Source of the DNA: Vermamoeba vermiformis
Lineage: Eukaryota
NCBI GenBank assembly: GCA_045837725.1
Contig: JBEWZL010000136.1
Location: 124,001-188,000 of the forward strand
Length of the DNA stretch: 64,000 nt
Direction: 5' to 3'
Below, in pieces: positions 1 through 53,062 of the stretch. The notes below the pieces were generated by a model, which ran no database searches, was not told the origin of the DNA, and worked only from the letters and a program-made list of their open reading frames with translations. Both the position numbers and the translations under genes were made by a program. How positions within the stretch are numbered: the stretch's first letter is position 1; each line of letters begins with the position of its first letter.

Positions 1-1808
1 TGGCAGCCAAAAAGTGAATTTGCTTCCTTGATCCGACCCGGCACTTTTGAACCGAGTTAGTACGATCACGAAATAATAGGGAATGGTGATATATATACCT
101 TTTAATACTGATAGCGCCTTCCATAAGTTTGACAATCAAGACGCAAATGTTCAAACCAAGTCCCGTGCCCCCGACCAAAATATCTTTTTTCTTGTTTGAC
201 GCTTGTTCGAAGGCTGAAAATATCGTTTTGAAATCTTTCGCGTTAACTCCAACACCAGTGTCTTTCACTGAAAACTGAAGATATTTCTCGTCCCCTGATG
301 ACTTGGCCCAATTGATCATCATCGTGTTGGACTTTGCACCGGCAGTTTTGATCTTGTGTTGGTTCGATAATTTCACGGTGAGCGTGATATTTCCTTGCGA
401 TGTAAATTTCACGGCATTTGAAAGTAAATTGACGAGTATTTGTTTCACTTTTGTTTTGTCGCCGAAGAACATATCGGGAAGATAGCCTTTCAGTCTCGAC
501 TCGAATTTGATCAGTTTCTTTTGGTTCAATAGCGGTGATATCACTTCTGATGCTTCATTCACTAATGCCTCAATTTTTATGCAGCTTTCTTCGAGCTTCA
601 TTTTGCCGGCCTCAATCTAAAGTCCAATCGTTAGGATAGAGATTATACGTAGAGTTTATATGAGGTACCTTTGAAAAGTCGAGAATGTCATTGATAAGCT
701 GCAATAGATTCGTGGAGCATGTCTTGGCAATGTTGATGAGTTTGACGTATTCATCAGTCAGTGGTGCGAACTTGAGAATGTCGATTGCTCCAATGATGCC
801 CGATAACGGCGTTCTATAAATAGAAAAGATTCAGCGAACCAAATATAGAATTGATAAAACTAATGTCCGTTCGTAATTATGCAATGCCAAGTGTGAATCT
901 ATCCAAATTAGCTAATTTAGGGAATATTGTTCTATTAGGGTGGTTTAGCATCCGCGGCAAATCTAAAATTAGTATTATAAAATAGTACCTTAATTCATGG
1001 CTCATGCGCGCTAAGAAATCAGTCTTGTGCTTGTCCGCTTGTTCAAACCTTGCGAAGATCTCGTGTAATTTTCTGATGGCTATCAACATCAATAAGCCCT
1101 CCGTTATTGTGCGGGATAAATATGGTACGCTATAGTTTCGAGGAATAATTAAATATGGAAGGTAAATCCTTTCACGTACAGTAACACCGACAGATCCCGT
1201 CCACTTGTTTCATAAATTCGTTGCTGATAATTCGTTAAATAGCCGACTATTAAGTTGCCTATAGTACTAAGCAAAACACCTTCGGATCCTATTAGACAAA
1301 CGGTTAGATCTGTTTTTAGGACGCGAAATCTTACCCATCGTAACTCCATTTAGCATTACATAGGTTCCGCTATGCATCACCATCATGTCAAACGATACTT
1401 CTTTTTTAGTGCCCATATAAATTAAGAAGTACATTGTTAATAGGGACGTGTAACCAGCTTTTCGTTCCGAATCCGTTCGGCAAAATATGTATGTACAAAT
1501 AATCCGGATAATTGGAGCTGTAAATGCCAACATTCGAAACCGAGTTGGGACATTGTAAATTAGCCCTAAAAAATAATTTAGAAATAATAAAATTAATTTT
1601 TGGTCATTTTACCTGCTGAGGAGACTATTGAGAGCATGAATGAAACCAAAAATATTCTAAAATAAGCTCTAATAATTAAATCTGCCTTTGCTTTGCTCGA
1701 TCCATCGGTTCTTCTAGGGCGCCAAAATTTGGTCGTGATCCACGAGATTATTCGCTCTTCTATTCGCCAATAAATCTCGCTAGGATGAAAAACATCTTCA
1801 CGGGTCAT
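1..1808 (-). CDS. Hybrid sensor histidine kinase, array copy 1 (multi-exon; receiver end runs off the window edge)
   Basis: ATG at 1808 (MTREDVFHP..). TM exons carry FCRTDSERKAGY; H-box FLARMSHELR|TPLSGIIGAIDIL; N-box QILVNLLSNAVKFT; G1 SVKDTGVGV; G2 GGTGLGLNIC. Introns are GT-AG. Confidence 0.93.
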
Positions 1809-2128
1809 GGTTACGTCATATCAAATTTTATTAAATCAATGTTACTTCGCATTTTGTTTTGTTCAACGTTCGTGAACAATATCCATTTTTGGAACCAACG
1901 AAAATTGTTCCGCTTCTCGTTTTGCGTCGTAAATCTTTTTGAGACGAGCTGATAAGTAAGTTGGCCTTGGTTTTGCTAAACCGCCAACTTTTTCGCCAAA
2001 AGTTGAACGTGATTCACGATGTAATCCGCACTTCGGTTGCTAATTCTACCAATCCAAGATTGTAGCTCCAAGGTAAGATTGCGGGAAATTTTGGACCACA
2101 CTAAGGAGTCGTGACGAAGGGGGTGGAT

Positions 2129-4463
2129 CTACTCGCAAAACCGATGACGGTACTTGTCCAAGCACTGCTTGAGAGTATCAATAGAGCACGGTTTCATCAA
2201 GAAATCGTCCATTCCTGCTTTCAGTGCCATTGTTCTCTTCTCTTCCACTGCATGTGCTGTCAGTGCGATGATTGGTGTTGTCACGCCCATTTCACGCAAC
2301 TCTGTCACCGTTGCGATACCATCTACGCCATAAATTATTATAAGACATCAATTAGACCGGCAAGCTTACCCATCACAGGCATCTCCAAGTCTAATAGAAT
2401 CACGTCATAGTGCGGTTTCGGGGTCGACTTTAGCCTCTGAACCGCGATCTGCCCATTTGACGCCTGATCAACAAGACAGCCTAACTTCGTCAATTGGCCT
2501 CTATCGTTATAATCTTCATTAATATACAAGTACTATGCAAATCTTGGCGGCGATCTAAAGCCTTACTTGATCACCAACTGATTGACCGCGTTATCTTCTA
2601 CCAAGTACACTTGCAATGGAGTCTTCGACAATGGTTCAATGACGCTAACTTCAGGGTCTCTCGGAGACTCGTCCTTTGGCGGTGACAATTCCTCTACGAA
2701 CGGGATCCAGAAACTGAACTTACTTCCTTGATTCACTCCTTTGCTATTATCGAACATAGATTAGAATTATACAAATACGATTATTCATTGCATACCTTTT
2801 AATGCTTATTGCGCCTTGCATCAGCTTCACGAGCAAGAGACAAATGTTGAGACCAAGTCCGGTGCCGCCAACAACTTCATCTTCCTTGCGATTGGCGAGC
2901 TTAAAATTTCATCAAAAGCTATCCTTAGGTGAGTATTATAGAACGTTTTACCTGCTCAAACGCTGAGAATAATCTTTTGAAATCTTGGGAACTGACTCCA
3001 ATGCCGGTGTCTTTCACTGAAAATCTGATGAACTTGTTCCATCGATTAGCCGTCCAATTATTAGTCATTGTGTCTACTGCGGTTGATGCGCGCTTAATAT
3101 CTTCGAAGTTTGTCAACTTAACGTTCAACTCGATACTGCCTTGATTGGTGAACTTGACTGCATTCGACAAGAAATTGACGAGAATTTGCTTCACTTTCGT
3201 CTTATCTGCCACAAAGTAGCTGGGGACTTCTTTCATTACCGCGATTGATTTGAATTCAATCGATCTTTTTTGGCCTAATAATGGTGACACAACTGATGAC
3301 ACCTCACTGATTAATTCTTTCATTTTGATCGTTTCTGGCATCAACTTCATCTTTCCAGCCTCGATCTAGTAATAATAGCACAAATTAGCGAGCGTCTCTC
3401 AAATAAATTAGCAACTGCCGTACCTTCGAAAAGTCGAGAATGTCGTTGATGAGCTGCAGTAGATTCGTGGAGCATGTTTTGGCAATGTTGATGAGTTTGA
3501 CGTATTCATCAGTCAGTGGTGCGAACTTGAGAATGTCGATTGCTCCGATGATGCCTGATAACGGCGTTCTAAACAAAATGAATCAAAATACGTCGTGTCA
3601 AAAACGTCAAATTTTTCGCTTTCGAAGGAGCAAAAGGCGATATTATCGTATTGCCGTACCTCAATTCGTGGCTCATTCTGCATAAAAATTCAGTTTTGTG
3701 TTTATCTGCCTCTTCAAATCGGGCAAAGGTCTCCGTGAATTTCCGGATTCCAATTAACGTTAAACCCGCTTCCATGATTGTTCGCATAACGAAAGGTGCC
3801 CTAAGTGCCTGTTAATATCATATTTGAATCACGATTCATAATAGACATTTACCAGAGCAGAGTTAGATCTCGAGATGTGTTAACCATTTGCTGTCGATTG
3901 TAAAAAAGAGATCCAAGCAGAATATTGGCCGATAGAGCTACGTATACGCCTTCATTTCCTATAATTAAAAACATTTAGTCAGTTTTACAAAAGCTGTGGA
4001 TTTGTATCCGTACCCATGACAATTCCACTCAGCATTGTTAGAGCGGATCCTTGCATCATAAACATTTCAAAGCATACGTGCCTAGGACTCCCCAGATACA
4101 ATAATGTATAAACGATCGCCAGCGAAAAATAACCAGCTTTTCTTTCTGAATCCGTTCTACAAAAGACAAATGCCGCCATAATTCGTATTGTGGGTCCAAC
4201 CAAGGACAATAAATAATATCTAGAGTTTGTTCCAGTCGGGATATAACCTAATACTCGATTAAAATTAAAATAAATATTACAAGAGTTTTCTTACCCGTCA
4301 TCATGACTAAACATTGTGTAAATGATAGCAAAAATATTCTAAAATAGGCACGAAGTATTAAATCGGCTTTGGCTTTGCTTGATCCACCAACTCTCTTCGG
4401 TCGCCAAAATTTGGCAACCCACGAGACGACCAGTTCTTCGCATCTCCAATAAATTGGTTCCAT
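2129..4463 (-). CDS. Hybrid sensor histidine kinase, copy 2 (about 6TM-HisKA-HATPase_c-REC)
   Basis: MEPIYWR.. start; MSHELR|TPL; NAVKFT; DTGIG; GTGLGL; receiver VEDNAVNQ / ILLDLEMP / ALTA / FLMKP; ends CLDKYRHRFCE-TAG at 2129. Confidence 0.93.
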
Positions 4464-4464
4464 T

Positions 4465-5209
4465 GAGGGAATTAAAAACTTAACTTACGCGGCATAAAAT
4501 TTTTTTTTCGCGCTTAAGTTATGCGGCGTAAAAAATTATTCCTCAAATGCGTTTCAAACTTAACTTATCTTTTTTCTCAAATCAACCGCGACCTTGAGCG
4601 ACGCTCAAAAATTATAGTATTAATAATATAATTAAGTACCAAGGTTATATTAACGTAAGCCACGAAAGTGGTTATGAAAGAAAATTTCAAATAATTCAAG
4701 TTCGGATCTGAAAATTAGATCCCGCTTTCTCTCGTGCGAGTATGTGTCGACTGGCTCATTTAGCGTTCATAATTATCGTTAGACACTATGAGAGCCTTCG
4801 TCTACCATACTCAGCATTGTGGTGCCTCACTGGAGTTGAGAATAGACTGCGTGACTCAAAAAAAATCATTCGCTTTTCTCCTCAACAACGAGCACCACAA
4901 GAGTCGCACCACTCCAGTTCCATATTATATATGCAGTAATATAACTATATATATTTTTAAGAATTTTTCTGCCGTGCTAAGCCACCGATCAGCACATCAT
5001 CTGATCTACAATTTTTTTGTCTCTCGTGTCGAGAGCTAGTTCTTAGCCAACGACATAATGTCCTTGTAGTATTTTGTATTTTGAAATGAAAAAATAAACC
5101 TTGGCATAACTTTACAAAAGAAAAGATAAGTTAAGTTTGAAACGCATTTTTTGGCATAACTTAGCGATTTTTTTTTTTATGCCGCGTAAGTTAAGTTTTT
5201 AATTCCCTC
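4465..5209. mobile_element. Non-autonomous TIR DNA transposon (MITE-like), ~745 bp
   Basis: GAGGGAATTAAAAACTTAACTTACGCGGCATAAAA (4465-4499) is the exact reverse complement of 5175-5209. A second inverted block pairs ~4545-4574 with ~5121-5150. ATT flanks both ends (4462-4464 and 5210-5212), a candidate 3-bp TSD. No transposase ORF inside. Confidence 0.8.
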
Positions 5210-5489
5210 ATTGGCGCTCGTAATTTTTTTAAAATACAAAATATTGTGTCGTCCATGATGATTTACTGTTGATTTACCGATAACACATGACAGGTGTGTC
5301 ATTTTGAATTTTAAAACTCTTGCAAGCTGATTTAGTTACGAAGATGAATAATGAAATCCCGGAAGTTTTTAACATAGTAGACCTGTTGTTGGCTTGCTTA
5401 AGCACGCTCTGTGGCGAGTGTTCTGTTCAACGTTTCTCCATCGGATCTGCAGCGAGGACAATTTTTGTTTGCGCAGATTTTCAACAAGC

Positions 5490-7329
5490 ATGGAGCACCC
5501 TCCTTATAATATCGGAGATAGCCTACCGTTGGAGGTTATCGAGACAATTCTTATCAGCCTTGACACGCACTCTCATTTTCTTAGGTAAACTAATACTGGC
5601 TGTATAATTCGAATTAAGAACTTTTATTATTTAATTAATAGCGAACAATGGAATGTTCACCATCAATTAATGATATCACCAGAGCTCGATCCGTTTCTAA
5701 AACTTGGTTTTTTGTTGTCGATGCATTAATTGAGCGTTCTAAAATACCCTCCGTACGTAAATAATTTTAGTATAATTTTTGGAATTAATTTTATTGTTAG
5801 AGGACTCCTGCAGAGCGAGTTCGATTTGCCGTATCTAAATTTCTATCCCAATATCGAAATCTGCTTGATCCACCAAAGAAGGATGAGAAAGATCAATCTA
5901 ATAAGACGGAAAAAAACAAGAAAATATCTAAAAACAAATCCAAAAAGAACGAGATCCAGCCACAACCAGCTCAAGAACCCGAGCCAAAAAAAACTCGATG
6001 CAATATCGATTGGCTACGAAAGAGCTTCGAGACTATATTATTGGCACTTCCTCTGTCAGACGAATTTCTACCGGTCAGTGAAGAAAAGATCTTGCTCTAC
6101 GTGTGGCTGTTTGCTGAAGAAGAGGACACTCTCAGACGCTATTTTGCATCCGTATTTAAACGTAAGTCATGCAGATTATTTTCTGTTATCATTTTAACCA
6201 GGGGTTGGTTTTTAAAGCCAAGATCGGATGCCGGATGCCGCTATTTGGAGGATATTTCATGATGATTCGGCCGAATAAATTCGTGTTCGAGCTTGAAAGA
6301 GAATTGCTGGCCCTATTGCATCCTTATAAGTACAACAGATTAGAGGTACGTAACACGAACCTTTATTTGACACGTGTCAACTCACATTACTGACCTTTAT
6401 TTGACACGTGTCAAACTCCGTTCACTAAATTAACACGGCGTTAACAATGTTGTACGGCCCGTATGACGTTTATGACATTTTGACACGACAAAACCAATCT
6501 GACACGTGTCACTTTTGACACTTCTTTTGCAAGCCCCGCTCATCATTTAGTTCAGTAGTACGATTTTTATTAATGAAGGTGTTCAGACTGACAATGCTAA
6601 GCAAGGCTATCAACCGAAGCACCTCGACATACTGATTGAATTGTCACGAAAAGTTGCAACATCCACGGCACAATTGTTAAAGTTATTACCTAGGTAGGTA
6701 TACTGTAATCCTTGCATTGAATAACTATACCACAGTATTAACTTTTGATATGAATGATAATAGTAAGATAATCTACACGTTGAAATCAGTCCAGCGGATC
6801 TGCGTCTATGATTCTAGCGCAATTGTTTAGGAAGTTTATTATCCCTAGTGTCACTCGAACGGCGATGTTTGGTCCAACAGTAAGTACCTACTAATTATAG
6901 TACTCATAATGTATATGCGTATTTGCATTCCTTTTAATAAAACCAATTAATTTACTGAGATCGCTTTGTAGCGAAAAGGCAATAGAAATGGTCTAAAACC
7001 ACAACTTGCAACACACTTCCACACTGTGGCCGTGATCATTACAGCGAACTTAGAAGGAAGTCGTTTGCGAGAGGCTTATTTGGATCAAGCAAATTACCTC
7101 GGAGAAGATCTCAAAAAAATTCTCATTCCAGCATTTGAAGAGTTAATGGTACCTTACTAATTTAACGCCTAGCTCCTTATATAATTAATTTTTTGTTTAA
7201 ATTTAGAAAATCGAGATTGATATGGCAGAAGTCAAGAAGCCGTTGGCGATCAATGTTCGTGGAGATGAACTTTTATCATTATTATTGAATATGAAACAGC
7301 CACAGAAATTCGCTCCGCAGAAAAAATAG
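5490..7329 (+). CDS. F-box-like protein, multi-exon, with an apparent frame break between exons 1 and 2
   Basis: SLPLEVIETILISLD (exon 1) and DITRARSVSKTWFFVV (exon 2) resemble the two halves of an F-box. Exon 2 splices in frame to TPAERVRFAVSKFLSQY.. The 3' end is approximate. Confidence 0.55.
6362..6520. repeat. Cluster of TGACACGTGTCA palindromes (with a direct repeat) inside an intron
   Basis: Palindromes at 6368, 6402 and 6500; ACCTTTATTTGACACGTGTCAA is duplicated. Confidence 0.8.
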
Positions 7330-7522
7330 TCATTTGAATCGACTTGTGAACGCTCTTATCTGGATTAGTGACACGTGCCAACACCAACTTTGGATCGAAA
7401 CTCAATCTCCCTTTCGGAGAAATTTGTTATGACCGGGTAAAAAGGTGATTCAAAAAGCGAATTGGAGATTCTTTCCGTTGTTTCTGATTCAAAAAAAAGA
7501 CCTTTTAAATCAACGCTGCAAC

Positions 7523-8832
7523 ATGAAAGCAACAATTGCCTTTAATCTTTTAGTGTTGCTGAGTCTTTGCTGCTATGTAAAAGGTACCGTACTTAAGTTG
7601 CAAAAAGGTCTTACAAAACAATTCTTAGGTGACTCGCAATGCAACTTGGGTCAATTCGCCGTTAGAAGTGATAAAGAAGACTATTTGGTAATTAACTCCC
7701 CTAAAGACGTCCAATTGTGCGGAGTCAATCTTTGTAATGCAATCAACGCCAAGCAATCGTTGTCGCTCTCAGCGGACGGTGCAACTCTTCAAATATCCGA
7801 CTCCAATTCCGTAACGCTTCAGGATCCTAGTCCCACAAACGAACTTCAGACTTTGTCGTTGGATGCGGCAGGCAAACTGTCGATCTCGCAAGGGAATTCC
7901 GTTGACATCCCCGACATGAGCTCAACAAACGAGATTCAAAGTCTATCTCTCACGCAAGACGGAATCTTATCAATTTCGAATTCCAACTATGTAACAATAC
8001 CTGATGTGAGTCAAACGAACGAAATCCAAACTCTTTCGTTGGATGCGTCTGGCAAACTGTCGATCTCACAAGGGAACTCAGTCGACATCCCCGACATTAG
8101 CCCAACAAACGAGATTCAAACTTTGTCTCTTAATGGCAACTCATTAGAGCTCTCCAATGGTGGATCTGGCGTTACTCTTCCCGATGTTTCAGCAACCAAC
8201 GAGCTTCAAAACTTGACACTAAGCAACGGTGTCTTATCCGTCACTAATGGCAACTCAGTCCTGCTTCCCGATACCAGTGACAAGAACGAACTTCAAAATT
8301 TGACGCTAACCAACAACGTCTTATCCATCACTAATGGCAACTCCCTAGACATTTCGTACTTGAGCAGTAAGAATCAAATGCAACGAGAAGTAAAAGTTAA
8401 TTTTTGAAATCAGAGCCAGTCCTATTCCGAGTCTCCTTGTCGGCTAGCCTCACCATTCCGCAAGCCCAATACACTACAGTAGCCTTTGATAGCATTACTG
8501 TTGATACTGCCCAAGGATTTGTAGCGGGAGGCATTTATAAGGTTGTTACTCCAGGATGGTACCAGGCCTCCACGATGTTTACTTTTCACGTGACAGCATC
8601 ATCCACGTACTACATCGAAACTCACTTTTACGTGAACAACAGCCCATCTTTCCACTGCACAAATAATGCTGCACTCAGTGGCTACACTTTGTTAGGTACG
8701 CAGTGCACGGATATCTTCTACTTGGGGAAAAACGACGCTATTTCCGTTGTGTTATGGTGGTCCGGCTCTGGCAGTAGCCTGGAAAATCTTGTCGGCAACA
8801 GTTCATGGACCTTACTCAAAGTCAGTGACTAG
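7523..8832 (+). CDS. Secreted protein: signal peptide + 7 x ~30-aa TNE(I/L)QTLSL..G.LSIS.GNSV.(I/L)PD repeats + C-terminal C1q/TNF-like domain
   Basis: MKATIAFNLLVLLSLCCYVKG signal peptide. Repeats are readable in ORF 7445..8407. After an intron (~8367-8414), PVLFRVSL..TTVAFDSITVDT..GIYKVVTPGWYQ matches the C1q pattern. Confidence 0.85.
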
Positions 8833-9028
8833 AACGCATATGTAATCAGTGTTTAAATGTCTCGACAAATAAACAAGAAAAAGTTTATTCAGCCCGCGTA
8901 AATGTCCGACAGCCCATCGTATTTAAAGTGTTTTCCTCTTCGAACGTTTCTTCAACAACTTTGCGCTAGCTCTTCTTCTAAGCGCTGCGGGTTCAATTCC
9001 CTTGAACGACAGCCAATCACATCAAGTT

Positions 9029-11475
9029 CTATTTCGGCGCTGCGACGTTCTTCTCGAGACATTGTTTGAGAGTATCAATAGAACACGGTTTCATCAAGAA
9101 GTCATCCATTCCTGCTTTCAGTGCCATTGTTCTCTTCTCTTCCACTGCATGTGCTGTCAGTGCGATGATTGGTGTTGTCACTCCCATTTCACGCAACTCT
9201 GTCACCGTTGCAATACCATCTACGCCATAAATTAATATATATAATCAATTAGACCGGCAAGCTTACCCATCACAGGCATCTCCAAGTCCAACAAGATGAT
9301 GTCGTACTTCAGTTGTGCTTTGTCTTTGAGCAGATCCGTAGCGAGTAAACCATTTGACGCGAGATCAACTTGACATCCGAGCTTCATTAGTTGACCCCTG
9401 TTATTGAAACAATATTAGCCTGAGTATTAATCCGCAACTATATTATAATATGACTTACTTGATGACCATCTGATTGACGGTATTATCTTCAACGAGCAGC
9501 ACGGATATTTTCGGGCGTTCAGAATCAACGACATATCGCGTGACTTCTTTGCCATTCGTTACAACATCACTATCGATGCAGTCTTTGCCGTCATATGGAA
9601 TCCAGAACGTGAATTTAGTGCCTTGATTGGCCCCGGTGCTGCAAAACACGATGACATTAGTTGACACGTGTCATAGCTACGAGCGAGTTGTACGTACCTC
9701 CTGATGCTAATAGCGCCTTGCATGAGTTCAATAAGCAACAGACAGATGTTCAGACCAAGGCCAGTGCCACCTGCAATCTCGTTCTTCTTTCGCAACGTTG
9801 CCTATCGAGTGCAAAGGTGAGCACTTGTGTTGAGTGTCATGAAAGTGACACGTGTCAAAAAAAGTTGAATTGTACCTGTTCGAAGGCTGAAAAGATCTTC
9901 TCAAAATCGTTGACATCCACACCAATGCCCGTGTCTTTCACTGAAAACTTGAGGAATGTTTTGCACTCTTTGGTCCACGAATTCATCAACGAAAATGTTC
10001 TGTTCGCTGCTTTAGCGATACTTTGATCAGTATCGAGTTTGACTTTCAATTTGATGCTGCCAGTGCTCGTGAACTTGACGGCATTCGATAACAAATTGAC
10101 GAGGATTTGTTTCACTTTCGTCCTGTCTGCCATAAATGCCTGGGGAGTATCGGCAGGAATGGACTTGACGAATGTAATGCCCTTTTTTAGATTTAATAGC
10201 GGTGAGACTACTTCAGCGGCTTCATTCATCAAATCTTTCACGTTCACTGCCTCGATTATTAGCTTCATTTTACCGGCCTCAATCTGTCACAAATTATTAA
10301 TATTATATCGTTTCATTAAGAATATTCAAAAGTAATAATGATAGCATGATTATTAAAATGACAGGTGTCATTCAGGTACCTTCGAAAAGTCAAGGATATC
10401 GTTGATTAATTGCAATAGATTGGTAGAGCAGGTTTTGGCAATATTAATAAGTTTGAAATACTCGTCTGTTAATGGCGCAAATCTTAGTATTTCAATGGCA
10501 CCAATAATTCCGGATAACGGCGTTCTAAAAATAACAATTATTACGAGCTGATAATGACACTTTGACAGATCGCGTTTCAACTTTAATCTCTTTTGAAGTC
10601 TGTCAAATCATTTCTAAATATATCATGTCTTAATTATAATAAGGTATAATATCGTACCTTAATTCGTGGCTCATACGGCAGAGAAATTCTGTCTTGTGTT
10701 TGTTGGCTTGCTCGAGACGAGAAAACGTTTCTGTGAACTTTAAGATGCTAATACTAATCATTATAGCCTCGGTAATATTACGGGCAACAAATGTACTCCT
10801 ATTTAATCAAATTAAATTCGATTGCACGCGATCTCGATTTCATACCACATAAGATGCGTTTCACCGCTGGCAGTTTGAAGGAATATATAGCCAATAGTAA
10901 AGTTTGCGAGTACTCCGAGACATAAGCCTTCAAATCCTAAAAGAATAATAAATTACTGATTCATTCTGTGGTCTAAAAATATACATCCGGTATACCTAAC
11001 ACGACTCCGCTTGTTAATAGAAACGAGGAGCTTCGGAACGAGAACTTGTCGAACCCAGTATCAGGGTGCTCGAAAATGTGCGTGTAGATAGTCACATACA
11101 TAAATATAATGGCGAAATAACCAGCTTTTCGTTCCGAATCTGTCCAGCAAAATATCATCAACGAGACGATGCATGACATTGGTGATAATAGCGAGACTAG
11201 TTTATGAGGTCCACTCTCGCCAAAGCTGACGTCTAAACGAAGAATATACAATTAGATTTTTTAATTGCGCATCTTGGAGGTTAAAAAAAGATATTATGCT
11301 TACCAGCTACGATTAATATAAACGATGACAAGCATAATAAAGTTAATCGCACAAACATTCTAATAAATATTTCTGCTCTTTCAAGGCTCGATCCCTGTTG
11401 CTGGCGCCAATAGTTCGCCACAGTATACGCGACCATGCGGTCCTCTAAATTTTTATAGGCGGCAAAATAACCCAT
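9029..11475 (-). CDS. Hybrid sensor histidine kinase, copy 3
   Basis: MGYFAAYKNLED start; FCWTDSERKAGY; all HK boxes and receiver motifs present; ends CLEKNVAAPK-TAG. Confidence 0.92.
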
Positions 11476-11722
11476 GGTGACGTTGGGATCAATCAGATTA
11501 TTGATTGTAAATACAAAATTACACTGGCGTAAGTTTATTATTAGCACGTGAAAAACTGCTAAATTTGGCGAATCCAGATCCGGAGCACGAAGTGGCCGTT
11601 TTCTTCCCGCTATTCAATTATAAACTCGAACCCCCCACTAGTGTGCACCATTAATCAAGGGACCAACAATTCCGAGCCACTTCTTTAAACGATTCTTCCC
11701 TGCCAAACGAGTGAATCTGGAT

Positions 11723-14151: not shown

Positions 14152-14365
14152 TGTTGTATTGTGCCAAATATTTAATTCAAATACAAAATCTCACTGTGAG
14201 GAATTTTAAATTTTAGCGGATCGTTAATCCCAATTTGGCCTTATTTCGCTATGGACTTGATTTCTGTGATTCATTCGCCAATTCTGAAACCTTCGATGTG
14301 TCTGCGCGGTAACAATCTCATCCAGTCGTTAGCTGTTCCGACGTCCGTTCACTGAACCAAGCAGA

Positions 14366-16638
14366 TTACTTAAACTTGTGTCGGTATTTGTCCAAGCATT
14401 GTTTGAGAGTATCAATAGAGCACGGTTTCATCAAGAAGTCATCCATTCCTGCTTTCAGTGCCATTGTTCTCTTCTCTTCCACTGCATGTGCTGTCAGTGC
14501 GATGATCGGTGTTGTCACGCCCATTTCACGCAACTCTGTCACCGTAGTAATACCATCTAATACAATGTTAGTCTACTTGTAGGCATTGAACTTATAGTAA
14601 AATATTACCTTTAACGGGCATCTCTAAGTCTAGCAAAATCAAGTCGAACTTGGACTTGGACACGCGGCTCATTTTATCAACGGCAATTAGACCGTTCGAT
14701 GCCACCTCTACGGTGCATCCGAGCTTAGTTAATTGACCCCTAATAACATAACATATTAGACAAGTCCTTGTACTAACGTATTATCAGGGACTTACTTGAT
14801 CACTGTTTGATTGACCGTGTTGTCCTCGACCAAGAAGATGGCAGGAGGCCGTGTTGGAGTGCCATTTTGCACTGCTCCGTTAGCCTCGGTCTCCTCATCG
14901 TCCATAATAACCTCTTCGTAAGGCACCCAGAACGTGAAAGTACTGCCCTTGTTCAAACCAGGACTAACCAGTACAACATTAGCACGTTGATTTTAGCTTA
15001 GTCGAACGAGTATACGTACCTCTTAATGCTGATTGCACCTTGCATCAGTTTGACAAGCAAAAGACAAATGTTGAGACCAAGGCCCGTGCCACCAATAATC
15101 TCGCCTTCCTTCTTATTCGACGCCTGCTCGAATGCGGAGAAAATCTTCTCAAAGTCGCGAGAGCTGACGCCGACACCAGTGTCCTTCACAATGAACTTCA
15201 AGAACTTTTTGCCAACGGCCCAAGTCTGCGTGTTCGAATTTGAGTGGTTGATAGTCTCTAAAATGTCCTTCAAATCTGAGCTTTTGACGGTGAGTGCGAT
15301 GCTGCCGGAGGTTGTGAACTTCACCGCATTGCTCAACAAATTGACGAGGATCTGTTTGATCTTCACCAAGTCACCTGAGAAGTACTCTGGTGCGTCCTTC
15401 AAAATCTTAGCCTTGAACTTGACATCTTTCTTCTGGTTCAATAGGCCTGAGACTACGTCCTTCGCTGCATTCACGAGCTTTTCCAATTTAACAGCCTCAA
15501 ATTTCAAACGCATCTTGCCGGCCTCAATCTACATTACAATAATCGTGGTTATATACTTGACAGTAGTCAAATAAAGGAAGTGTAAAGTGTAGTGGTACCT
15601 TTGAGAAGTCGAGAATGTCGTTGATGACTTGGAGCAAGTTCTTCGAGCACTCTTGCGCGATATTGATAAGTCTCATATTCTGCTCAGAGTGCGGTGCAAA
15701 CTTTAATATTTCAATAGAGCCGATAATACCAGATAAGGGCGTTCTAAAAAAAGGAGCTCGGTTAAATCACAAAGAAATACACAAGAGTATTGTACAATAC
15801 CTCAATTCATGGCTCATTCGGCATAAAAACTCCGTTTTGTGTTTATCTGCTTGCTCTAGGCGCGAGAAAGTTTCAGTAAACTTCAAGATGCCGATCAACG
15901 ACAAACAACACTCGGCAAAGGTTCTGGAATGGAATGCAGCCCTTTAAAGCAAATAATAAGTTTCACGCTGCTATGAAGTGCGACTTACCACAGTATCTCA
16001 AGGTTTGGCTCGCCGTGGCTCGCATGGAGGTAGGCAAATCCAAGCAGAGTGTTTACAATAAAAGTTATTAAAACTCCTTCATTGCCTAAATAACATTCGT
16101 AAGATAGTTTGTTCGATGCTAGCTAAAATTAACTCGCTACTACGAAACTAAATCAAAACTGGATGTGATCTTACCTAACACAAGACCGCCAAAAATTATA
16201 AATATCGAGCTTCTCGCGGCAAATGTCTCAAAGTTTCCAAATACAAATACGGAAACGCATATTGTTGAATAAACGACCAGCATTGAAAAATAGCCCGTTT
16301 TGCGCTCCGAATCTGTCCGACAATAAATGTAGATTGCCATCAGCGTTGAAAATGGCGCTAGGATTGCTAGAAGTCGATACGATGAGGCGCCAATGTTCAT
16401 AGCTGAACTAAATGGTTAGGAGCTTGGTCAATTGTTTAAAAATCGAATCCCTACCCACTAGTGTTTTGATAAAAAATAATACTGAGAGCATAAATATTCT
16501 AAAATATGCCCGTATTAACAAGTCTGCTTTTACAATGCTGGAGCCTTCTAATCTTTTTTTCGGAGTCCAATAACGAGAGCAGATCATCGTTACTATCTGA
16601 TCCTCCTTCGCCACGTATGCATTGAACAAAGCCTGCAT
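14366..16638 (-). CDS. Hybrid sensor histidine kinase, copy 5
   Basis: MQALFNAY start; YCRTDSERKTGY; HATPase exon 14998..15513; receiver; ends CLDKYRHKFK-TAA. Confidence 0.92.
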
Positions 16639-17072
16639 TTTATTCGTAAATATATAATGAATTACACAGGCTTGTTGCGGTTAACATCGGGACATTAATA
16701 AATGAATACGCAAAATTGCCCAATTTTAGAATATCTCCTGTAAGATCAAGTTCAGGGCTTTAATCGTTGTTTGCGCTCCTAGAACTATATATGACAGAGT
16801 AGTTCATGCAACAGCTTTATTCAGATTTGCCAACCGTTTAGCCTGATCTGATATCTGAACCCGTACATTTGCCAATTATGGTAATTTAAATGTATGGCGA
16901 GGTATGGAACATCAATATCGGTTAAATTAACGCCGTTGTTAAACGTAAATCCTGCTCGTAGTAACTTGCTTGATTCTGTTCTTAATCTCCCGCAATCTCC
17001 ACGGTAGATCCACGTCTGTGCGTTGTGAATCGTACACAGCAAGTATACGAACCGCAAACTTCGGTAGGAACC

Positions 17073-19280
17073 TCACTTGGGTGCATACTTATCCAAGCAT
17101 TGCTTGAGAGTATCGATTGAACACGGTTTCATCAAGAAATCGTCCATTCCTGCTTTCAGTGCCATTGTTCTCTTCTCCTCCACTGCATGTGCTGTCAGTG
17201 CCACTATATGCGTCTTAATTCCAATCGCCCGCATCTCCATAACAGTCGTTATTCCATCTGACCAATGGATCAATTCCCAATAAAGACTTGAAATAGCTTG
17301 ACGTACCTTTAATAGGCATTTCTAGGTCTAAAAGGACCAAATCGTATCGATCCTTACTGTTTTTAATCATATTTAGTGCTAGCTGGCCGTTCGGTGCCAC
17401 ATCCACGTTACATCCAAGTTTTACGAGCTGACCTCTATACAACGGCAATTGTTAGCGTTGAAAATCATGCTAACAGCCTCTTACTTTATAACCAGCTGAT
17501 TGACGGCATTGTCCTCAACTAACAAGATGCTTCTAGTGTTGGAAGTTGATCTGTGGAGAGGGACTAGATCTTCCTTCATCACGTAACTGTTCTCGAAATC
17601 TTGATACGGAACCCAAAACGAAAATGAACTGCCCTTGTTAATGCCTAGACTCTTAACGCTAATAGCACCCTCCATGAGCTTTGCCAAGAGAAGACAAATG
17701 TTCAGTCCGAGACCCGTTCCACCAACGACTTCTGCTTTCTGCTTAGAAGTAGCCTAATATTTCTAACTTAGAATCTACTCCCTAGTATCAAGACAGCTAT
17801 CTTACTTGTTCGAAGGCCGAGAATATCTTCTCGAAGTCGCCAGAGCTGACTCCAACACCCGTGTCTTTCACGGTGATCTTGATGTGCTTATCCGATCGTG
17901 CCCAGGACTTAGTCAAGGTACTCCTTTTGTTGGTTTGATCAACGATGTTCTGAATTGTAGTCGGCTTCACTTTCAGAATGATACTACCGTGGTGAGTAAA
18001 CTTTACGGCGTTCGACAAGAAGTTCACCAACACTTGTTTGATTTTGATCTTATCGCTTAAAAACACATCTGGCAACTCTGTAGATATGATACTCTTCATC
18101 TGTACTTCTGGTTTTTGAGATAACAACGGCGCGACCACTTGTGTAGCGGCATTGATAAGCTCACGAAGCTTTACCGTCTCGATCGTCAACCTCATCTTTC
18201 CAGCCTCGATCTACAAATATGTGAGTGATAGAACTTGGGCTCAATTAGGAAATATTCACACCTTCGAGAAGTCTAGAATGTCGTTGATTATTTGCAATAA
18301 ATTCTTCGAGCACGTCTGCGCGATGTTCACCAACTTGCTGTACTCGTCCGTCAACGGCGCGAACTTTAGAATATCAATGGAGCCAATAATACCAGACAAC
18401 GGCGTTCTGGATCAAAGTTAGTTAGTTATAACGTAATGTTGCATATTCTAATATTACCGTAGTTCATGGCTCATTCTGCATAAAAATTCAGTCTTGTGTT
18501 TATCGGCCTGTTCGAAGCGGGAGAAAATTTCGGTGAACCGTATTATACCGATAACTGATATTAATCCCTCGACTAGATTTTTAGCGAGAAAGGCTGACCT
18601 GAAAAATCTATTAGACTGGCGGTGGCTAACTACGGATCTTACCATAACACTGATAAGTCAGGCGAGTGTGGACGATGCTTCAGCTCCTCGCATAGCAAAA
18701 TATATCCCATAATATTATTCAGGATGAAGGTAGCAAAGACCCCTTCCACACCTAAACGGCTCTGAGTAAACTTTTTTCGATCGGATGGGACTTACCTAAA
18801 GTCATTCCTCCAACCATAAATAATACTGAGCTCTGAACAGCGAATAGATCGAATGCTTTTGGAGAATCGATTGAGGACCAATAAACTATTTGATAGAGTA
18901 CAAAATAAGCGAAGTACCCGACTGATCTTTCTGAATCTGTTTTGCAATAGAGATAGATTCCAGTAAAGCAACATGGAACCGCTAATATGGTAAGATTTTT
19001 ATAAGGTCCGTATTGGTTAAACACCTCTACAAATAAATCACAATTAATTATCATTAAAAAAAAACTCGTTATGAATTAAATATGAAATGATCGTACCTAA
19101 ATAAGTCAAGATCGATGGTATTATAGCGAGCACTATCACTCTAAAATACATTTTAATATTTAGGTCGACTCTTCTGATGCTCGATCCATCGTCGACTCTT
19201 CTCGGTTGCCAATAAGCCGAGTATATCCTCGATACGAGACGATCCTCTTTTTCGCGGTACCAATTAATCCATTCTGCCAT
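17073..19280 (-). CDS. Hybrid sensor histidine kinase, copy 6
   Basis: MAEWINWY start; YCKTDSERSVGY; MSHELR; NAVKFT; LLDLEMP; ends CLDKYAPK. Confidence 0.92.
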
Positions 19281-19476
19281 GGTCGCGTTTGGTACGCTCT
19301 GTTGTTCTTGCCTTTAGATTTGAGATTGCCAAATTTAGCTACTCCATTAATCGGCTCCTGTGAACAAATCGATGTAAGTGTCATTGCTTAGACATTGATT
19401 AGTATACTTACTGTCTTGTAATCCAGAGTAAATTGCCCTCCTATCATAAGTTCTGGGACTGATTCCACATCTGTTA

Positions 19477-21755
19477 CTATTTTTGGCGGTATTTTTCTAA
19501 ACATTGTTTGAGCGTGTCCATAGAGCATGGCTTCATCAAGAAATCGTCCATTCCTGCTTTCAGTGCCATTGTTCTTTTCTCTTCTACTGCATGCGCCGTT
19601 AGAGCTACAATGGGTATCGTTACGCCCATTTCTCGCAGCTCTCGACAAGCAGTAATGCCATCTGCAATCATATAAGCATCAAAATGTAATTAATATTGCT
19701 GTACTGACCCATTACCGGCATTTCCAAGTCCAACAAGATCAAGTCATATTGCGAAGGGGTTGCCACCGATTTGGATCTCTTGTCCTTTTTAAACTTTTTG
19801 ACCGCGATCAAGCCATTTGATGCTACATCTACGGTACATCCAAGCTTGACTAACTGTGCTCTAAATTAATAATATTAGAAACCTCGGCTAGAATAATGTC
19901 ATCGTACTTTATAACCAGCTGATTGACGCTGTTATCGTCCACAAGCAGTACCGAAGGCGAGTTAGTAGCAAGTCTGCCTATGTCAATCAACTCCTCTTCG
20001 CTTGCTTCACAGTCGCCATCCACGTGTACTTCACACGGGATCCAGAAAAAGAACGCGCTGCCCTTGTCGCGGCCAAGACTAGAGAACCACTCCGTTATTA
20101 ATCCAGGTTGATTGAATATTAAGTATCACGCGTACCTTCGAACGCCGATGGCGCCTTGCATTAGTTTCACAAGCAATAGACAAATGTTTAATCCTAGGCC
20201 TGTTCCACCGAGCACTTCTCCGTCTCTTCGATTCGACGCCTGTGCTTTAGCGTTAGTACTTGTGCCTGTTGAAATATTACGTCGTCGTACTTGTTCGAAT
20301 GCCGAGAATATTTTGTCGTAATCTTCTGGCTCAATTCCTCTGCCAGTGTCTTCAACAGTGAATTTGATGAAATTGTTGCTGTTAGCCCACGACTTCATAA
20401 ACATCTTCGGATCAACTGAGGCATCGAGAATACGTTGTGAAGTATCGACACCGACTCGTAGTGTGATACTGCCTCGCGTTGTGAACTTTACCGCGTTTGA
20501 CAAGAGGTTAATTAACACTTGTTTGATCCGCGTGAGATCGCCTGAAAAGCTCTCAGGCACTTCATTAGCAAGAACGGTCTTGAACTCAATCTCTGCTTTC
20601 TGCGTCACTAATGGCGTTATTACTTCAGAAACATCTTTGACGAGGTCACGTGGTTTGATCTTGTCGAACTTCACTTTCATCTTCCCGGCTTCAATCTGCG
20701 ATAAACGTAAGGATCGAAAAAGGAGATAGGATTATTACCGTACCTTTGAGAAGTCTAGAATGTCGTTAATAACCTGCAAGAGGTTCTTAGAACACGTCTT
20801 GGCAATGTTGATGAGTTTGACGTATTCATCAGTCAGTGGTGCGAACTTGAGAATATCGATTGCTCCGATGATGCCTGATAACGGCGTTCTGTGAAACGAA
20901 TTAACGACTCGTATCGCCGGCAGATTTTCCGATTCGATGCATCGTACCTTAATTCATGGCTCATTCTGCATAAAAATTCTGTTTTGTGTTTGTTGGCTTC
21001 TTCGAGGCGGGAAAATGCCTCGTTGAATTTCGCAATGCTTATTAAGGTAATGCAGCACTCGGAGATTGTTCTGGCTTGGTAAACAACCCTATGAAAATGT
21101 AATTAATAACTTTCGATCGATTAGGAGCCGTACCATAAGCCGGTTAAGCGCGTGGCATCCGCTGGATCCGCTGCAATTTGGGTTTTTGAAAATATATAGC
21201 CCAAGATCGAATTTAATATAGTCGATATTATTACTCCTTGCTTGCCTGAATAAAATTCTTGTTATTTTAAAATTCCGCGCATACTTTGCTTACCGAGACA
21301 TAAACCACTATAGATGATAAATGTAGAGCTTCTTATAGCAAAAGTTTCAAATCCAACTGCCCCTCGTATTGTTGGGACGCTTATTAATGCGTACAAGAAC
21401 GAAATAGCAACGCTACCCGTCAATAATTCCGAATCTGTACGACAGAATAAATAAATTGAAAAAATCGAAGCTGTAGGCCCAATAGCTGCAATATATTTAA
21501 ATGACGGTTCTTTATGGAGAGGAACTAAATTAAAATTGAATCATTAGATCACGAAACCGGTTTATAATTTAAATTCCACTTACATAATACTGCCACGATA
21601 AATAAGGATAAAGACAATAAAAATAAACGAAAATACACTCGAATAGCTAGTTGCGCTTTCGTTGTGCTTGATCCATTTACTTTTCTTGGTCTCCAGTACC
21701 GAGAATAAATTGCCGTCACTGCCCTGTTTTCTTGCTGCTGAATAAATTCGAGCAT
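19477..21755 (-). CDS. Hybrid sensor histidine kinase, copy 7
   Basis: MLEFIQQQE start; FCRTDSELLTG variant motif; HK boxes and receiver present; ends CLEKYRQK. Confidence 0.92.
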
Positions 21756-22032
21756 CGAGGCATGTTATACTATTGGTATTTACAAATAGACTGAAATTAC
21801 ACTCGGAATATTGCATATTTATGCAGTTTTTATACATTCGTCCAAAAATGGAAATGTGGGCGGGAAACTATTCTACGTGGATCCATCCTGTTAAACCATT
21901 CTGTCGCAAACTCTCCATACCCAAAAACTTTGGGTTGTTCAAACGTAGATTATATGACTTGAAGCAGATCTGATTTCCGTTAAACCCTTCGTCCGCGTGT
22001 CTTGAGTCGTCAGCACAAAGAATTCAAGCTAA

Positions 22033-24424
22033 TTACTTAACTACGTGGTGCTCGAGACACTGTTTGAGAGTATCAATAGAGCACGGTTTCATCAAGAAGT
22101 CATCCATTCCTGCTTTCAGTGCCATTGTTCTCTTCTCTTCCACTGCATGTGCTGTCAGTGCAATGATTGGTGTTTTAACGCCCATCTTGCGCAACTCAAT
22201 CACTGTCTCGATACCATCTGAAACTTGTCAGTACAGCGACGTTGCTATTAGCCGATGTTACCTTTTACTGGCATTTCTAAATCGAGCAAGATGATATCAT
22301 ACGATGGCTTTGGCTTCGTTTTGAACTTTTGAATGGCTAGTAATCCGTTTGAAGCGATATCAACTTGACAACCAAGACGTGTCAACTGACCCCTGAAAAC
22401 AGCCTTAGTAACGCAATTATACTCAGCCAGTATGTTTACGCACTTAATAACCATTTGATTGACGGCATTATCTTCCGTGAGTAGAATCGACAACGCTCTG
22501 TCTCCAACACTGACCGACGCGGATCTGCTACTTGAAGTTGAGGTAGGTCCAACCAGCGGTACTTCCTCTTCGTAGCTCTTCGTGTAAGGTATCCAGAATG
22601 TGAAGGTGCTACCATGTCCGATGCCGTCACTACATATTTGTCAGCCATTTTGTGCTTCAGACGTCACAAAGGTACGTACCTCGTTATACCTAGCGCACCC
22701 TGCATCAACTTCACTAACAGCAAACAGATATTTAACCCTACAATGCGTTAATAGGCGTCTATTTAATACTCTTTCGATTGATCCTTACCCAGCCCTGTTC
22801 CAGTTTTGACGTGTTCCTCAGGTCGATGCGATGCTTGTTCAAAGGCTGAAAAAATTGCTGCAAAGTCTTTCCTAGCGACGCCAAGGCCTGTGTCTTTCAC
22901 TGAAAACTTGATAAATTGCGTGTTACTAGCCCAAGTTTTCACGAATGAATTGCTTTGAGTTAAGGCTCGTGTAATATCTTGGTTGGTTTCCATGTCAACT
23001 TGCAATGTGATGCTGCCTTTGTTCGTAAATTTCGTTGCATTTGACAGTAGATTAACGAGTATTTGCTTCAATTTGGTCATATCGCCAACGAAGAACTCTG
23101 GTGCGTCCTCTGAAATGATTACTTTTGATTCAACGTCAGGCTTTTGACCAAGCAATGGCGAGACTACTTCGAGTGAAGACATGACAAGATCGCGTAATTT
23201 AACGCGACCGAGGATTAATTTCATTTTTCCGGCTTCAATCTGCTCCAATTCATTAGCGAAACTGCCGTGGCGGAAAACTTTGCGATTTACCTTCGAAAAG
23301 TCCAATATATCGTTAATAACTTGCAATAAGTTCGTCGAACATGCTTTTGCCATCTCTATTAACTTCAAATATTCGTCTGTCAAGGGCGCAAACTTCAGAA
23401 TGTCAATGGATCCGATGATACCGGACAAGGGTGTTCTGTGAAAATGAATCAATAAAAATCGATAGCTTGGTATATATTCTATATGAGCCGAACCTTAACT
23501 CGTGGCTCATTCTGCATAAAAACTCGGTCTTGTGTTTGTCGGCTTGTTCGAGCTGGTTAAATGTCTCTTGGAATTTTAAAATATTGATCACCATAATCAA
23601 GCTTTCTACTATTGATCGTGTTTCGTACGATGTCCTAATTTAAAGATAATTAATTATTGACGGTTTGTAATGGATTTGTGAGCGATTCAATTTACCAAGT
23701 ATGGATCAGACGTTGTTTCTCGTTCATGCCTAGAGCTGGAGGGTAATGAACGACTCCATTGTATTCTGATTGCATTAATATGAAGCCTAATGTGCTGCTT
23801 ATGATAAATGACGCCACTAAGCCTTCAACACCTGAAAATTCGATAATTACTATTTTAGTTTAATTTCAAATGGTAAACATCGAGAAACATTATTAATCAT
23901 GAATAGTATTATATTGATAATCAGGATTGAATCGATAGCTGTAAATTTCTTACCAAGTAGCATCGAACACAGAATCAAAACGGTGTGACTGCGGATGGCA
24001 AACACGTAAAATCCGCCGTATCGGAACGTAGCGATGAATACAAGCATATAAAATATTGATATGAGGAAATATGCTGCTCTGCGCTCTGAATCCGTGCGGC
24101 AAAATATGTACAAAGCCAGGGCTATGAAAGACGGGACCAAAATCGTTATAAACGGGAAGAATATTTCTCCTATTATCGGTGCTGTGAAAATAAATTAATA
24201 ATTACTTGTAATTACGCTGGTGAAGTGGCAATAAACCTCTTACATGAAATGAAATTCAGCAGGAAGTACGTCAAGCCGAGAAACAATAGCCTGATATAAG
24301 TCTTGATTACTAAGTGTGCTCTTCCTATACTCGAACCGCCTATTCTGGATCTCCAATAACGAGATGAGATCTGTTTAATAATTTGATCTTCCGTTTGTTG
24401 GTATATTCCAGCCCATGCTTGCAT
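22033..24424 (-). CDS. Hybrid sensor histidine kinase, copy 8
   Basis: MQAWAGIY start; FCRTDSERRAAY; MSHELR; SNATKFT; extra intron inside the G2 box; ends CLEHHVVK-TAA. Confidence 0.92.
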
Positions 24425-52623: not shown

Positions 52624-53062
52624 CACAGTACCATCGTATACGCTGCAAATGTGCTGTTAATTTATGTTCTGCTGTTTTAGACGTAATTGGTTAATCAGTA
52701 AAATTGCCTTTGGGAAGTTAAACCGCATCTCGGAGTGCGGAAATTCTTAAAACATTTACTTATTAGGAAAGTCGCACAATAAGTGCCATGTTTTTTGAAA
52801 CATACCTAGCTGGCAACGTTGAGGCTTGGCAACGAACGTGGGACAAATGCTTCACCGCCGGGACGTTCCGCCGTTGTACGGCATGCTTTAGAAGGAACCT
52901 TTTAATTAAATAAATATAGTACAATTGGTTCGCTGAAAAGTAAATTTATACAAGTCACTTGCTAACGCAATTTCGGCTGCGTCTATTTTTGCTGCCTCGT
53001 CTAAAATTAGATCTTAGTACACACCCAGATGCAACTCTAATAAATAACAAAACTTACTATTT

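Follow-up and report, generated by a model that had tools for sequence, protein, structure and literature searches.

The six-transmembrane (6TM) modules of the histidine kinase CqsS and of adenylyl cyclases are described as bundles with short helices and loops that bind ligands inside the membrane and connect directly to the H-box (PMC4821796). In protists, multi-span hybrid kinases with sensors of unknown kind are common (PMC6324907), and "6-TM histidine kinases" are the main type in ciliates, with 201 histidine-type transmembrane kinases in Paramecium and 51 in Tetrahymena (PMC10463195). Vermamoeba and Tubulinea are absent from the main texts of both surveys (PMC6324907, PMC10463195). Here, a stretch of 64,000 nucleotides (nt) from Vermamoeba vermiformis (contig JBEWZL010000136.1, positions 124,001 to 188,000; hereafter the window) was analysed, whose positions 1-24424 carry eight hybrid histidine kinase genes, g1 to g8. 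They had been noticed in a reading made from the letters alone (the sequence-only reading), as a tandem array with an unassigned six-helix sensor. Taken together, the results suggest that the genes probably belong to one lineage-restricted family of CqsS-like hybrid kinases, with sensing inside the membrane and a phosphorelay in common.

Eight hybrid kinase genes in one row

The window has a G+C content of about 40% and is eukaryotic, with abundant short introns. A six-frame scan over the full 64 kb for the SHELR H-box, G[ST]GLG, DLEMP and TDSE[RK] gave eight H-boxes, eight G2 boxes (G[ST]GLG), seven DLEMP and seven TDSE[RK] on the minus strand of 1-24424, and none of these motifs elsewhere in the 64 kb. 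With the g2 model, tblastn returned eight collinear minus-strand match sets (1-24406), and beyond the array only two chance-level matches in the 64 kb (E 0.062 and E 1.9). One gene model, built from open frames and GTA..YAG introns, served as guide for protein-to-genome spliced alignment; exons 2 and 3 of g8 (24181-23954 and 23831-23696) were set by hand. The genes stand head to tail on the minus strand as a row of six, an unrelated gap and then two. They are listed below with models from spliced alignment and sites from the motif scan (aa, amino acids).

1..1808, minus strand: g1, hybrid histidine kinase, the 3'-most copy, cut by the window edge; 461 aa, ending at the end of the ATPase domain; seven visible exons (1808-1613, 1565-1335, 1288-1180, 1129-989, 813-669, 616-99, 43-1); TDSER 1476-1462, His codon 999-997
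2129..4463, minus strand: g2, complete hybrid histidine kinase, 604 aa, 10 exons; TDSER 4155-4141, His codon 3670-3668, receiver Asp codon 2391-2389
4464..9028 (4565 nt), no strand: gap in the array without histidine kinase sequence (no match by tblastn with g2)
9029..11475, minus strand: g3, complete hybrid histidine kinase, 599 aa, 10 exons; TDSER 11143-11129, His codon 10668-10666, Asp codon 9288-9286
11723..14151, minus strand: g4, complete hybrid histidine kinase, 595 aa, 10 exons; TDSER 13826-13812, His codon 13346-13344, Asp codon 11976-11974
14366..16638, minus strand: g5, complete hybrid histidine kinase, 597 aa, 9 exons, without intron 6; TDSER 16316-16302, His codon 15811-15809, Asp codon 14630-14628
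17073..19280, minus strand: g6, complete hybrid histidine kinase, 598 aa, 9 exons, without intron 7; TDSER 18940-18926, His codon 18468-18466, Asp codon 17328-17326
19477..21755, minus strand: g7, complete hybrid histidine kinase, 605 aa, 10 exons; variant TDSELLTG 21438-21424, His codon 20958-20956, Asp codon 19730-19728
22033..24424, minus strand: g8, complete hybrid histidine kinase and first of the row, 613 aa, 10 exons (spliced alignment with hand correction); TDSER 24095-24081, His codon 23504-23502, Asp codon 22283-22281

The seven complete copies (g2-g8) are open reading frames (ORFs) of 595-613 aa in 9-10 exons, and a frameshift or in-frame stop was needed in none of them. Their introns are GT..AG and 44-133 nt long, the partial g1 having one of 175 nt, and the intergenic spacers measure 196-434 nt except for the 4565-nt g3/g2 gap. 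Motif scan, tblastn and spliced models thus agree with the sequence-only reading on eight same-strand hybrid kinase genes, and their spliceosomal introns confirm that the kinases are eukaryotic. The description as a tandem array holds for the head-to-tail order, but the row is broken by 4565 nt holding an unrelated plus-strand gene. It had also been stated that the array runs past base 1. Given the minus-strand orientation, however, g1 closes the row, and what is shown to leave the window there is its own 3' end alone.

Nine intron positions and phases are common to the copies; g1 and g5 are without one of them, g6 is without another, and one is shifted in g8. Since positions and phases are conserved in this way, the copies arose by tandem duplication at the DNA level. 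At the level of single introns, g1 and g5 are without intron 6 and g6 is without the next one. Intron 6 of g8 (22680-22789; not confirmed by reads) sits 16 codons further downstream; its phase is 1, whereas that of g2, g3, g4, g6 and g7 is 0. The models thus point to sliding of introns in the family, or to their loss and gain.

The output half of the proteins is of a well-known kind. In the full-length relatives P0002, P0010 and P0017, Pfam detected HisKA (E 4e-18), HATPase_c (E 5e-19) and Response_reg (E 1e-24). No PAS, GAF, HAMP or sensor family was found at E<=10 in seven family proteins (P0002, P0010, P0017, P0005, P0007, P0019 and P0020) and two exon translations, in line with the domain layout read from the letters. 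By alignment, the phospho-accepting His (SHELRTPL) is present in 8/8 window copies, as are the ATPase boxes N, G1, F and G2 (LSNAxKFT, DTGxG, FxxFEQ and G/TGTGLGL). The receiver motifs (E/D)DN, LLDLEMP, ALTAH and FLMKP are kept in 7/7 complete copies, g1 being cut before its receiver. The earlier statement that the His is intact in eight copies and the receiver Asp in copies 2-8 was therefore correct for every copy that can be tested. HisKA, HATPase_c and a C-terminal receiver, found by Pfam and alignment, place the proteins among the class I (HisKA-type) hybrid histidine kinases.

The best NCBIfam matches of the core and receiver were TorS, BarA, LuxQ, RcsC and ArcB (E 1e-90 to 1e-74), all from residue 196 onward, leaving the sensor unmatched and with scores far under the curated cut-offs (for example, 305 against 676.5 bits). 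Bacterial hybrid histidine kinases in metagenomes were 32-38% identical to the kinase core.

A six-helix sensor and the search for its relatives

The sensor was modelled with AlphaFold2 on residues 1-215 of P0010, the full-length g7 orthologue, with a 42-row family alignment. The model (mean predicted local distance difference test score, pLDDT, 82.9) has an N-terminal cytosolic helix at 2-23 and six predicted membrane helices at 34-60, 67-90, 93-114, 118-137, 139-163 and 165-214 (TM1 to TM6). In the model of full-length P0010 (mean pLDDT 73.0), the last helix is one rod, 165-235, running through His219, with a pLDDT of only 52-60 in the dimerisation and histidine phosphotransfer (DHp) region of this monomer. 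Family-averaged hydropathy also gave six peaks. Predicted inside segments carry a mean of 10.3 Lys+Arg against 2.9 on outside segments, which fits an N-in, C-in orientation. Since only about 24 residues separate the modelled membrane exit (K195) from His219, there is no space for a HAMP or PAS domain. Models and hydropathy therefore bear out the N-terminal helix and about six hydrophobic segments joined directly to HisKA, and the count is clearly above the five or so helices below which the sequence-only reading would have been given up.

Mapping conservation on the model put WR(P/Q)..GSS just before TM1, FCxTDSER in the TM2-TM3 turn and GxEG in the TM4-TM5 turn, all on the inside. Within helices, conservation is found at S126/S127 (TM4), N149 and G153 (TM5) and W175, R181 and E185 (TM6) in P0010 numbering; S126/S127, N149, G153, R181 and E185, all in helices 4-6, are conserved in 77-100% of 13 family sequences. 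The modelled outer loops 1-2 and 3-4 have 3-6 residues each, and the TM5-TM6 link alone makes an outer segment of some size, with 12 to 29 residues depending on the copy. With the conserved motifs at the cytosolic face and outer loops that, this link apart, are tiny, any ligand would, according to the model, need to act within the membrane. The three motifs had been described as kept in the sensors, but single copies vary: WTP in g5, WQP in g6, WRS in g8 and TDSEL in g7, whose turn reads TDSELLTG.

The sensor itself was described earlier as unassigned, and it stayed so in all searches. A phmmer search with a single sensor sequence against 1.84 billion cluster representatives gave 12 matches at E<=0.001. 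Ten of them were family fragments, and the other two, P0024 and P0025, were rejected by inspection as repetitive, unrelated proteins. At this threshold, no relative outside the family was thus found among the representatives, a library without names in which the presence of CqsS is unconfirmed. Word-index searches of 5.8 billion proteins, one of them with an exon-2 profile, returned few family members only (P0002, P0003, P0008, P0010, exon-sized fragments and P0006, which its source labels as a Vermamoeba vermiformis transcript). In metagenomes, 80 of 315 relatives were examined; the sensor was present in three loci only (L001, L054 and L079), with introns, and the other 77 matched the kinase core without sensor similarity. 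The TDSER pattern gave 7 matches in prokaryote genomes and 12 in viral contigs, none of them confirmed. Foldseek against the PDB found nothing at E<=0.001, the best match being TMEM45A (E 0.19). By Pfam, phmmer and Foldseek, therefore, no confident match to a described class of eukaryotic histidine kinases was obtained. In the literature, nothing was found on the family or on the "TDSER" motif, nor on the own kinases of Vermamoeba vermiformis, as judged by titles and abstract openings of the papers listed. The sensor is a new, well-delimited family within a known kind of receptor, and no new signalling principle is involved.

Two assignments were considered and set aside. Membership in the MASE group was rejected, no MASE Pfam model having matched at E<=10 in the seven proteins and two exon translations. 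Ethylene receptors have three N-terminal transmembrane helices with an ethylene/copper site, followed by a GAF domain; this type was rejected on the basis of six helices instead of three and no Pfam GAF, the site itself not being compared at residue level.

Divergence, transcripts and neighbouring genes

The eight copies differ very unevenly along their length. Mean amino acid identity among them was as follows (CA, catalytic and ATP-binding domain):

sensor: 36% (about 27-62)
DHp: 85%
CA: 55%
CA-receiver linker: 19%
receiver, first part: 69%
receiver, last exon: 85%

The sensor is thus far more divergent than the DHp or the last receiver exon, as had been claimed, and at the level of sequence this fits varied inputs on a common output. 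Synonymous sites are saturated among paralogues (proportion of synonymous differences, pS, about 0.8), with the exception of the last exon (0.47). Because of this saturation, the duplicates are old, and the conservation of the DHp reflects selection and not recent conversion.

Orthologues of single copies exist elsewhere, which also shows that the duplicates are old and that each is conserved. Sensor/core identities are 72/86% for g2 and P0002, 57/74% for g1 and P0017 and 80/82% for g7 and P0010, and sensors are 57-80% identical to their orthologue compared with 29-46% to non-orthologous copies. Against the spliced orthologue P0002, the g2 exon junctions show no indels. Among fragments, P0027 (exon 1) is 69% identical to g4, P0019 79% to g5 over 138 aa, and P0004, which reads through an intron, 98% to g6 over 116 aligned aa. 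In a 13-row maximum-likelihood tree, the pairs g7+P0010, g2+P0002 and g1+P0017 were strongly supported, and there was also support for the neighbour pairs g1+g2 and g3+g4. The nearest paralogue of g3 is its neighbour g4, with about 63% sensor and 85% core identity.

Constraint within single lines was measured between closely related sequences. Comparing the sensors of L054 and L001 over 87 codons gave a proportion of non-synonymous differences (pN) of 0.12, a pS of 0.70 and an omega of about 0.06-0.08. Between g7 and X5, a set of contigs under the label of a different, closely related organism that are 95-99% alike to the stretch, 25 synonymous and 10 non-synonymous changes were counted among the 35 differences listed (from 40 of 197 X5 differences). 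These sequence comparisons describe each sensor as conserved within its own line under purifying selection and the array as a stable set of specialised paralogues. The expectation of a diversified repertoire is upheld as to divergent sensors on a common core, but not as to pace: the duplicates are old, under purifying selection and not rapidly diversifying.

The last receiver exons (9029-9219, 11723-11907, 14366-14556 and 22033-22217) are 77-95% identical in protein among copies, with a mean pS of 0.47 and a minimum of 0.19, compared with about 0.8 in the remaining gene. The low pS suggests partial gene conversion or a constraint at the nucleotide level.

Evidence for transcription comes from X5, whose contigs cover 22 of 30 bins, all within g3-g8. 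Fifteen of their 40 joints were listed. In fourteen of these, 44-62 nt bounded by GT..AG on the minus strand are missing, in exact agreement with modelled introns, which confirms all nine introns in g7, three in g6 and two in g8:

17753/17806, 18406/18458 and 18598/18643, minus strand: introns of g6 confirmed by X5
23239/23291 and 24181/24244, minus strand: introns of g8 confirmed by X5

The fifteenth joint (12317 / 9703) goes back 2615 nt, from g4 to g3, at a stretch near-identical in both, and is most simply an assembly chimera of paralogous transcripts. Spliced proteins (P0002, P0003, P0010 and P0017) also come from other records. By these intron-free sequences, the family genes appear to be transcribed and spliced in a close relative.

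Other joined contigs were noticed. The spliced orthologues of g2 and g1 share single intron-free contigs of a different source, namely P0014 with P0017 (3699 nt) and P0002 with P0003 (4512 nt). P0017 reads open through its upstream spacer, the corresponding g1/g2 spacer in the window being 320 nt. These contigs could reflect read-through, co-transcription of neighbouring copies or merged assemblies. In L079, a low-coverage metagenome contig, the antisense of a kinase last exon adjoins the middle of a sensor exon (2-112), either by rearrangement or through chimeric assembly. Further along (2378-2551), after the first gene, this contig holds the first exon of a second family gene, and therefore the tandem arrangement recurs in another organism.

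The array gap is occupied by a repeat-rich protein, found in the ORF listing:

7433-8407 and 8401-8832, plus strand: ORFs of the repeat-rich protein in the array gap, without Pfam match

This protein (7433-8832, plus strand) has a hydrophobic N-terminus and a C-terminal domain of about 140 aa, and is related to an ORF at 31846-32667 (minus strand); both hold many repeats of about 21 aa, PDxSxTNE[IL]QxL[ST]L, with no Pfam match. Ten neighbouring ORFs gave nothing in Pfam. The splicing factor SF3B1 is encoded at 27433-31035 (plus strand) as an uninterrupted ORF of 1200 aa, in the neighbourhood of kinase genes with 8-9 introns apiece. Evosea and Tubulinea (Amoebozoa) are among the atlas clusters closest to it. 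A second tandem paralogous pair lies at 51834-53918 and 54286-56316 (both minus strand), each with an N-terminal ORF (SGSSV.PL.E.LTASV...GAIGV) followed by a multi-span ORF (DFFGSN.LYP.W...LFTLYW.E.MTSASV). The two multi-span membrane ORFs had no Pfam match.

Proposed mechanism, alternatives and described systems

Class I histidine kinases dimerise, and the proteins of the array would do likewise, as homodimers. The signal, which could be a membrane property or a small molecule that is lipophilic or partitions into membranes, would act inside the membrane bundle and move helix 6, which is continuous with DHp helix 1, so switching autophosphorylation or phosphatase activity at His219. Phosphate would then pass from His to the receiver Asp, to a separate histidine phosphotransfer (HPt) protein and on to response regulators. 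A common transducing core may be formed by WRP..GSS, FCxTDSER and GxEG on the cytosolic face together with S126/S127, N149, R181 and E185 in mid-membrane. Divergent helix faces and the variable TM5-TM6 outer link would give each paralogue its specificity, and the near-invariant DHp and receiver surfaces would make one relay usable by all copies. In Amoebozoa, the end target may be the cAMP phosphodiesterase RegA and, through it, encystation. Amoebozoan sensor histidine kinases and phosphatases regulate RegA and encystation via cAMP and protein kinase A, and in amoebae it is chiefly through sensor histidine kinases that the environment is known to act on this switch (PMC4399386).

Other roles of the six-helix bundle have to be weighed against the intramembrane-sensing family. 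All copies might sense one physical or ionic cue, such as thickness, fluidity, pH, a cation or potential, through the mid-membrane polar cluster; what sets them apart would then be their set-point, expression or localisation. Membrane state is sensed by multi-span kinases such as DesK, and both the 77-100% conservation of the helix residues S126/S127, N149, G153, R181 and E185 and the lack of an extracellular domain would suit such a cue. However, at least eight old paralogues with sensors about 27-62% identical, each retained over a long span, appear to be more than the tuning of a set-point would require, and the TM5-TM6 outer link would not be expected to range from 12 to 29 residues; this explanation is considered rather unlikely. 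A similarly minor chance is given to the bundle being mainly a membrane anchor and dimerisation scaffold, with regulation by a cytosolic or membrane partner docking on WRP-GSS, TDSER and GxEG and with helix divergence as relaxed drift. The sensor motifs conserved at >=90% do map to inside turns, bar a few helix residues, the outer loops 1-2 and 3-4 have only 3-6 residues, and the structurally similar diguanylate cyclase ImcA needs its transmembrane region to interact with the partner IsmP (PMC10904736). Relaxed drift, though, is at odds with orthologous sensors that are 57-80% identical with an omega of about 0.06-0.08: since these are conserved, the helices are constrained within each paralogue line, unlike in pure drift. 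The conserved polar residues in helices 4-6 would also be unusual for a plain anchor.

Some points weigh against an intramembrane-sensing family on a shared relay. The conserved residues facing the cytosol in the model could equally mean binding of a cytosolic partner and not ligand transduction. The alignments behind the models are shallow (42-47 rows, with many fragments). The pN/pS of 0.55 in the sensor against 0.11 in the DHp is a relative measure only among the paralogues, whose pS is saturated. No further receiver was found in the 64-kb window by tblastn with g2, a search in which HPt was not sought. VIA-align, a fold search independent of Foldseek, found three membrane proteins covering most of the sensor model, namely human adenylyl cyclase AC5 TM1 (Z 9.0, 183 of 215 residues aligned), ImcA (Z 8.6, 179 residues) and Rv1625c of M. 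tuberculosis (Z 7.0, 125 residues), but at a root-mean-square deviation of 3.7-5.5 A and 8-12% identity, with Z in the tool's chance range for helical bundles. As for expression, X5 was taken as RNA because of its intron-free form, which is a guess. In the RNA-seq runs X15-X17, which carry the species label of the window, 85, 70 and 144 reads fell on 20 kb, with about 46-48% of each run examined. Nearly all of them are 95-99% alike, lie partly off the stretch and on the conserved last exon, and show fixed differences and foreign flanks. They probably derive from other paralogues or a divergent strain and, because of these fixed differences and the loose ends on the last exon, give no verdict on the window copies; their pile-up points to further expressed paralogues elsewhere. 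In the gap, depth was zero from all four runs at 4430-8431; in the bin 8432-9098, shared in part with the end of g3, a single run reached 0.03. The few own-species reads on the copies could be taken to mean a dead or artefactual array, made of pseudogenes, bacterial contamination or assembly duplication. This is hardly credible given the open frames in 7/7 complete copies across 9-10 exons with GT..AG introns, the catalytic residues that are all kept, the spliced contigs in a relative and the excess of synonymous change. Moreover, the copies differ at about 80% of synonymous sites, and with a pS of about 0.8 between them they are not assembly duplicates. Silence of most copies, which would have spoken against the sequence-only reading, was thus not encountered in the spliced contigs of the close relative, whereas the own-species reads are silent on the matter.

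For the lineage-restricted, intramembrane-sensing family, the interest lies in its being compact and clearly delimited, with sharp motifs, a confident 6TM model and at least eight old paralogues, in an organism that matters in ecology and medicine as a host of giant viruses and intracellular bacteria. To our knowledge, no encystment sensors or signals are known in free-living amoebae outside the dictyostelids. The family also offers concrete residues and swaps for testing hexahelical modules as intramembrane receptors, a role that is likewise debated for the 6TM anchors of adenylyl cyclases (PMC4821796). Paralogue-specific ligands, for example bacterial lipophilic signals, would sharply raise its importance if found. 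In a bolder version, the array would be an amoebal counterpart of CqsS/LqsS, each paralogue binding a different lipophilic microbial signal within its helix bundle and all driving one HPt-RegA relay that chooses between feeding and encystment. Bacterial alpha-hydroxyketone signals do alter amoebal behaviour. This version is a long shot; if true, the array would be a eukaryotic repertoire for eavesdropping on bacterial chemistry, such as the autoinducers or lipids of prey or intracellular bacteria.

Among described systems, the DhkA-DhkM-class kinases of dictyostelids and other amoebozoans belong to the same supergroup and have the same hybrid kinase-receiver output, with a relay to RegA expected (PMC4399386). 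They differ in carrying CHASE, PAS, GAF or other sensors, and none is reported with the 6TM module of the array (PMC6324907). The multi-TM kinases of Naegleria, Tetrahymena/Paramecium, Capsaspora and Thecamonas (PMC6324907, PMC10463195) resemble the array in their several hydrophobic N-terminal helices and in lacking a known sensor domain, and they often form large families confined to one lineage, but the phmmer library search showed no sequence relation of their kinases to the array sensor. The membrane parts of AC5, ImcA and Rv1625c are likewise 6TM bundles, each leading through its last helix into a dimeric signalling enzyme, although their outputs are cyclases, not kinases. Since Z values of 7.0-9.0 are within chance for helical bundles, the resemblance is one of design, not of kinship. 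Bacterial MASE domains are similar to the sensor as integral-membrane modules fused to signalling enzymes, and MASE2, 6, 7, 8 and 11 were the language-model clusters nearest to residues 1-195 of P0010, at scores of 0.94-0.96 from a feature search that makes no alignment and whose figures are not calibrated for protein parts.

The design is also that of CqsS/LqsS of Vibrio and Legionella, quorum-sensing hybrid kinases that are receptors of alpha-hydroxyketone autoinducers. In the library searches the sensor showed no sequence likeness to anything outside the family at E<=0.001, CqsS itself being compared by description only. These receptors share with the array six short transmembrane helices, tiny loops and no extracellular domain (PMC4821796). 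In both, the sixth helix passes into the H-box with no HAMP or PAS in between, and the kinase is followed by a receiver of the kind that depends on an HPt relay. The array sensor differs in its additional cytosolic helix at the N-terminus and in motifs of its own, WRP-GSS, TDSER and GxEG, and the array genes, unlike those of CqsS/LqsS, are eukaryotic, intron-bearing and tandemly multiplied.

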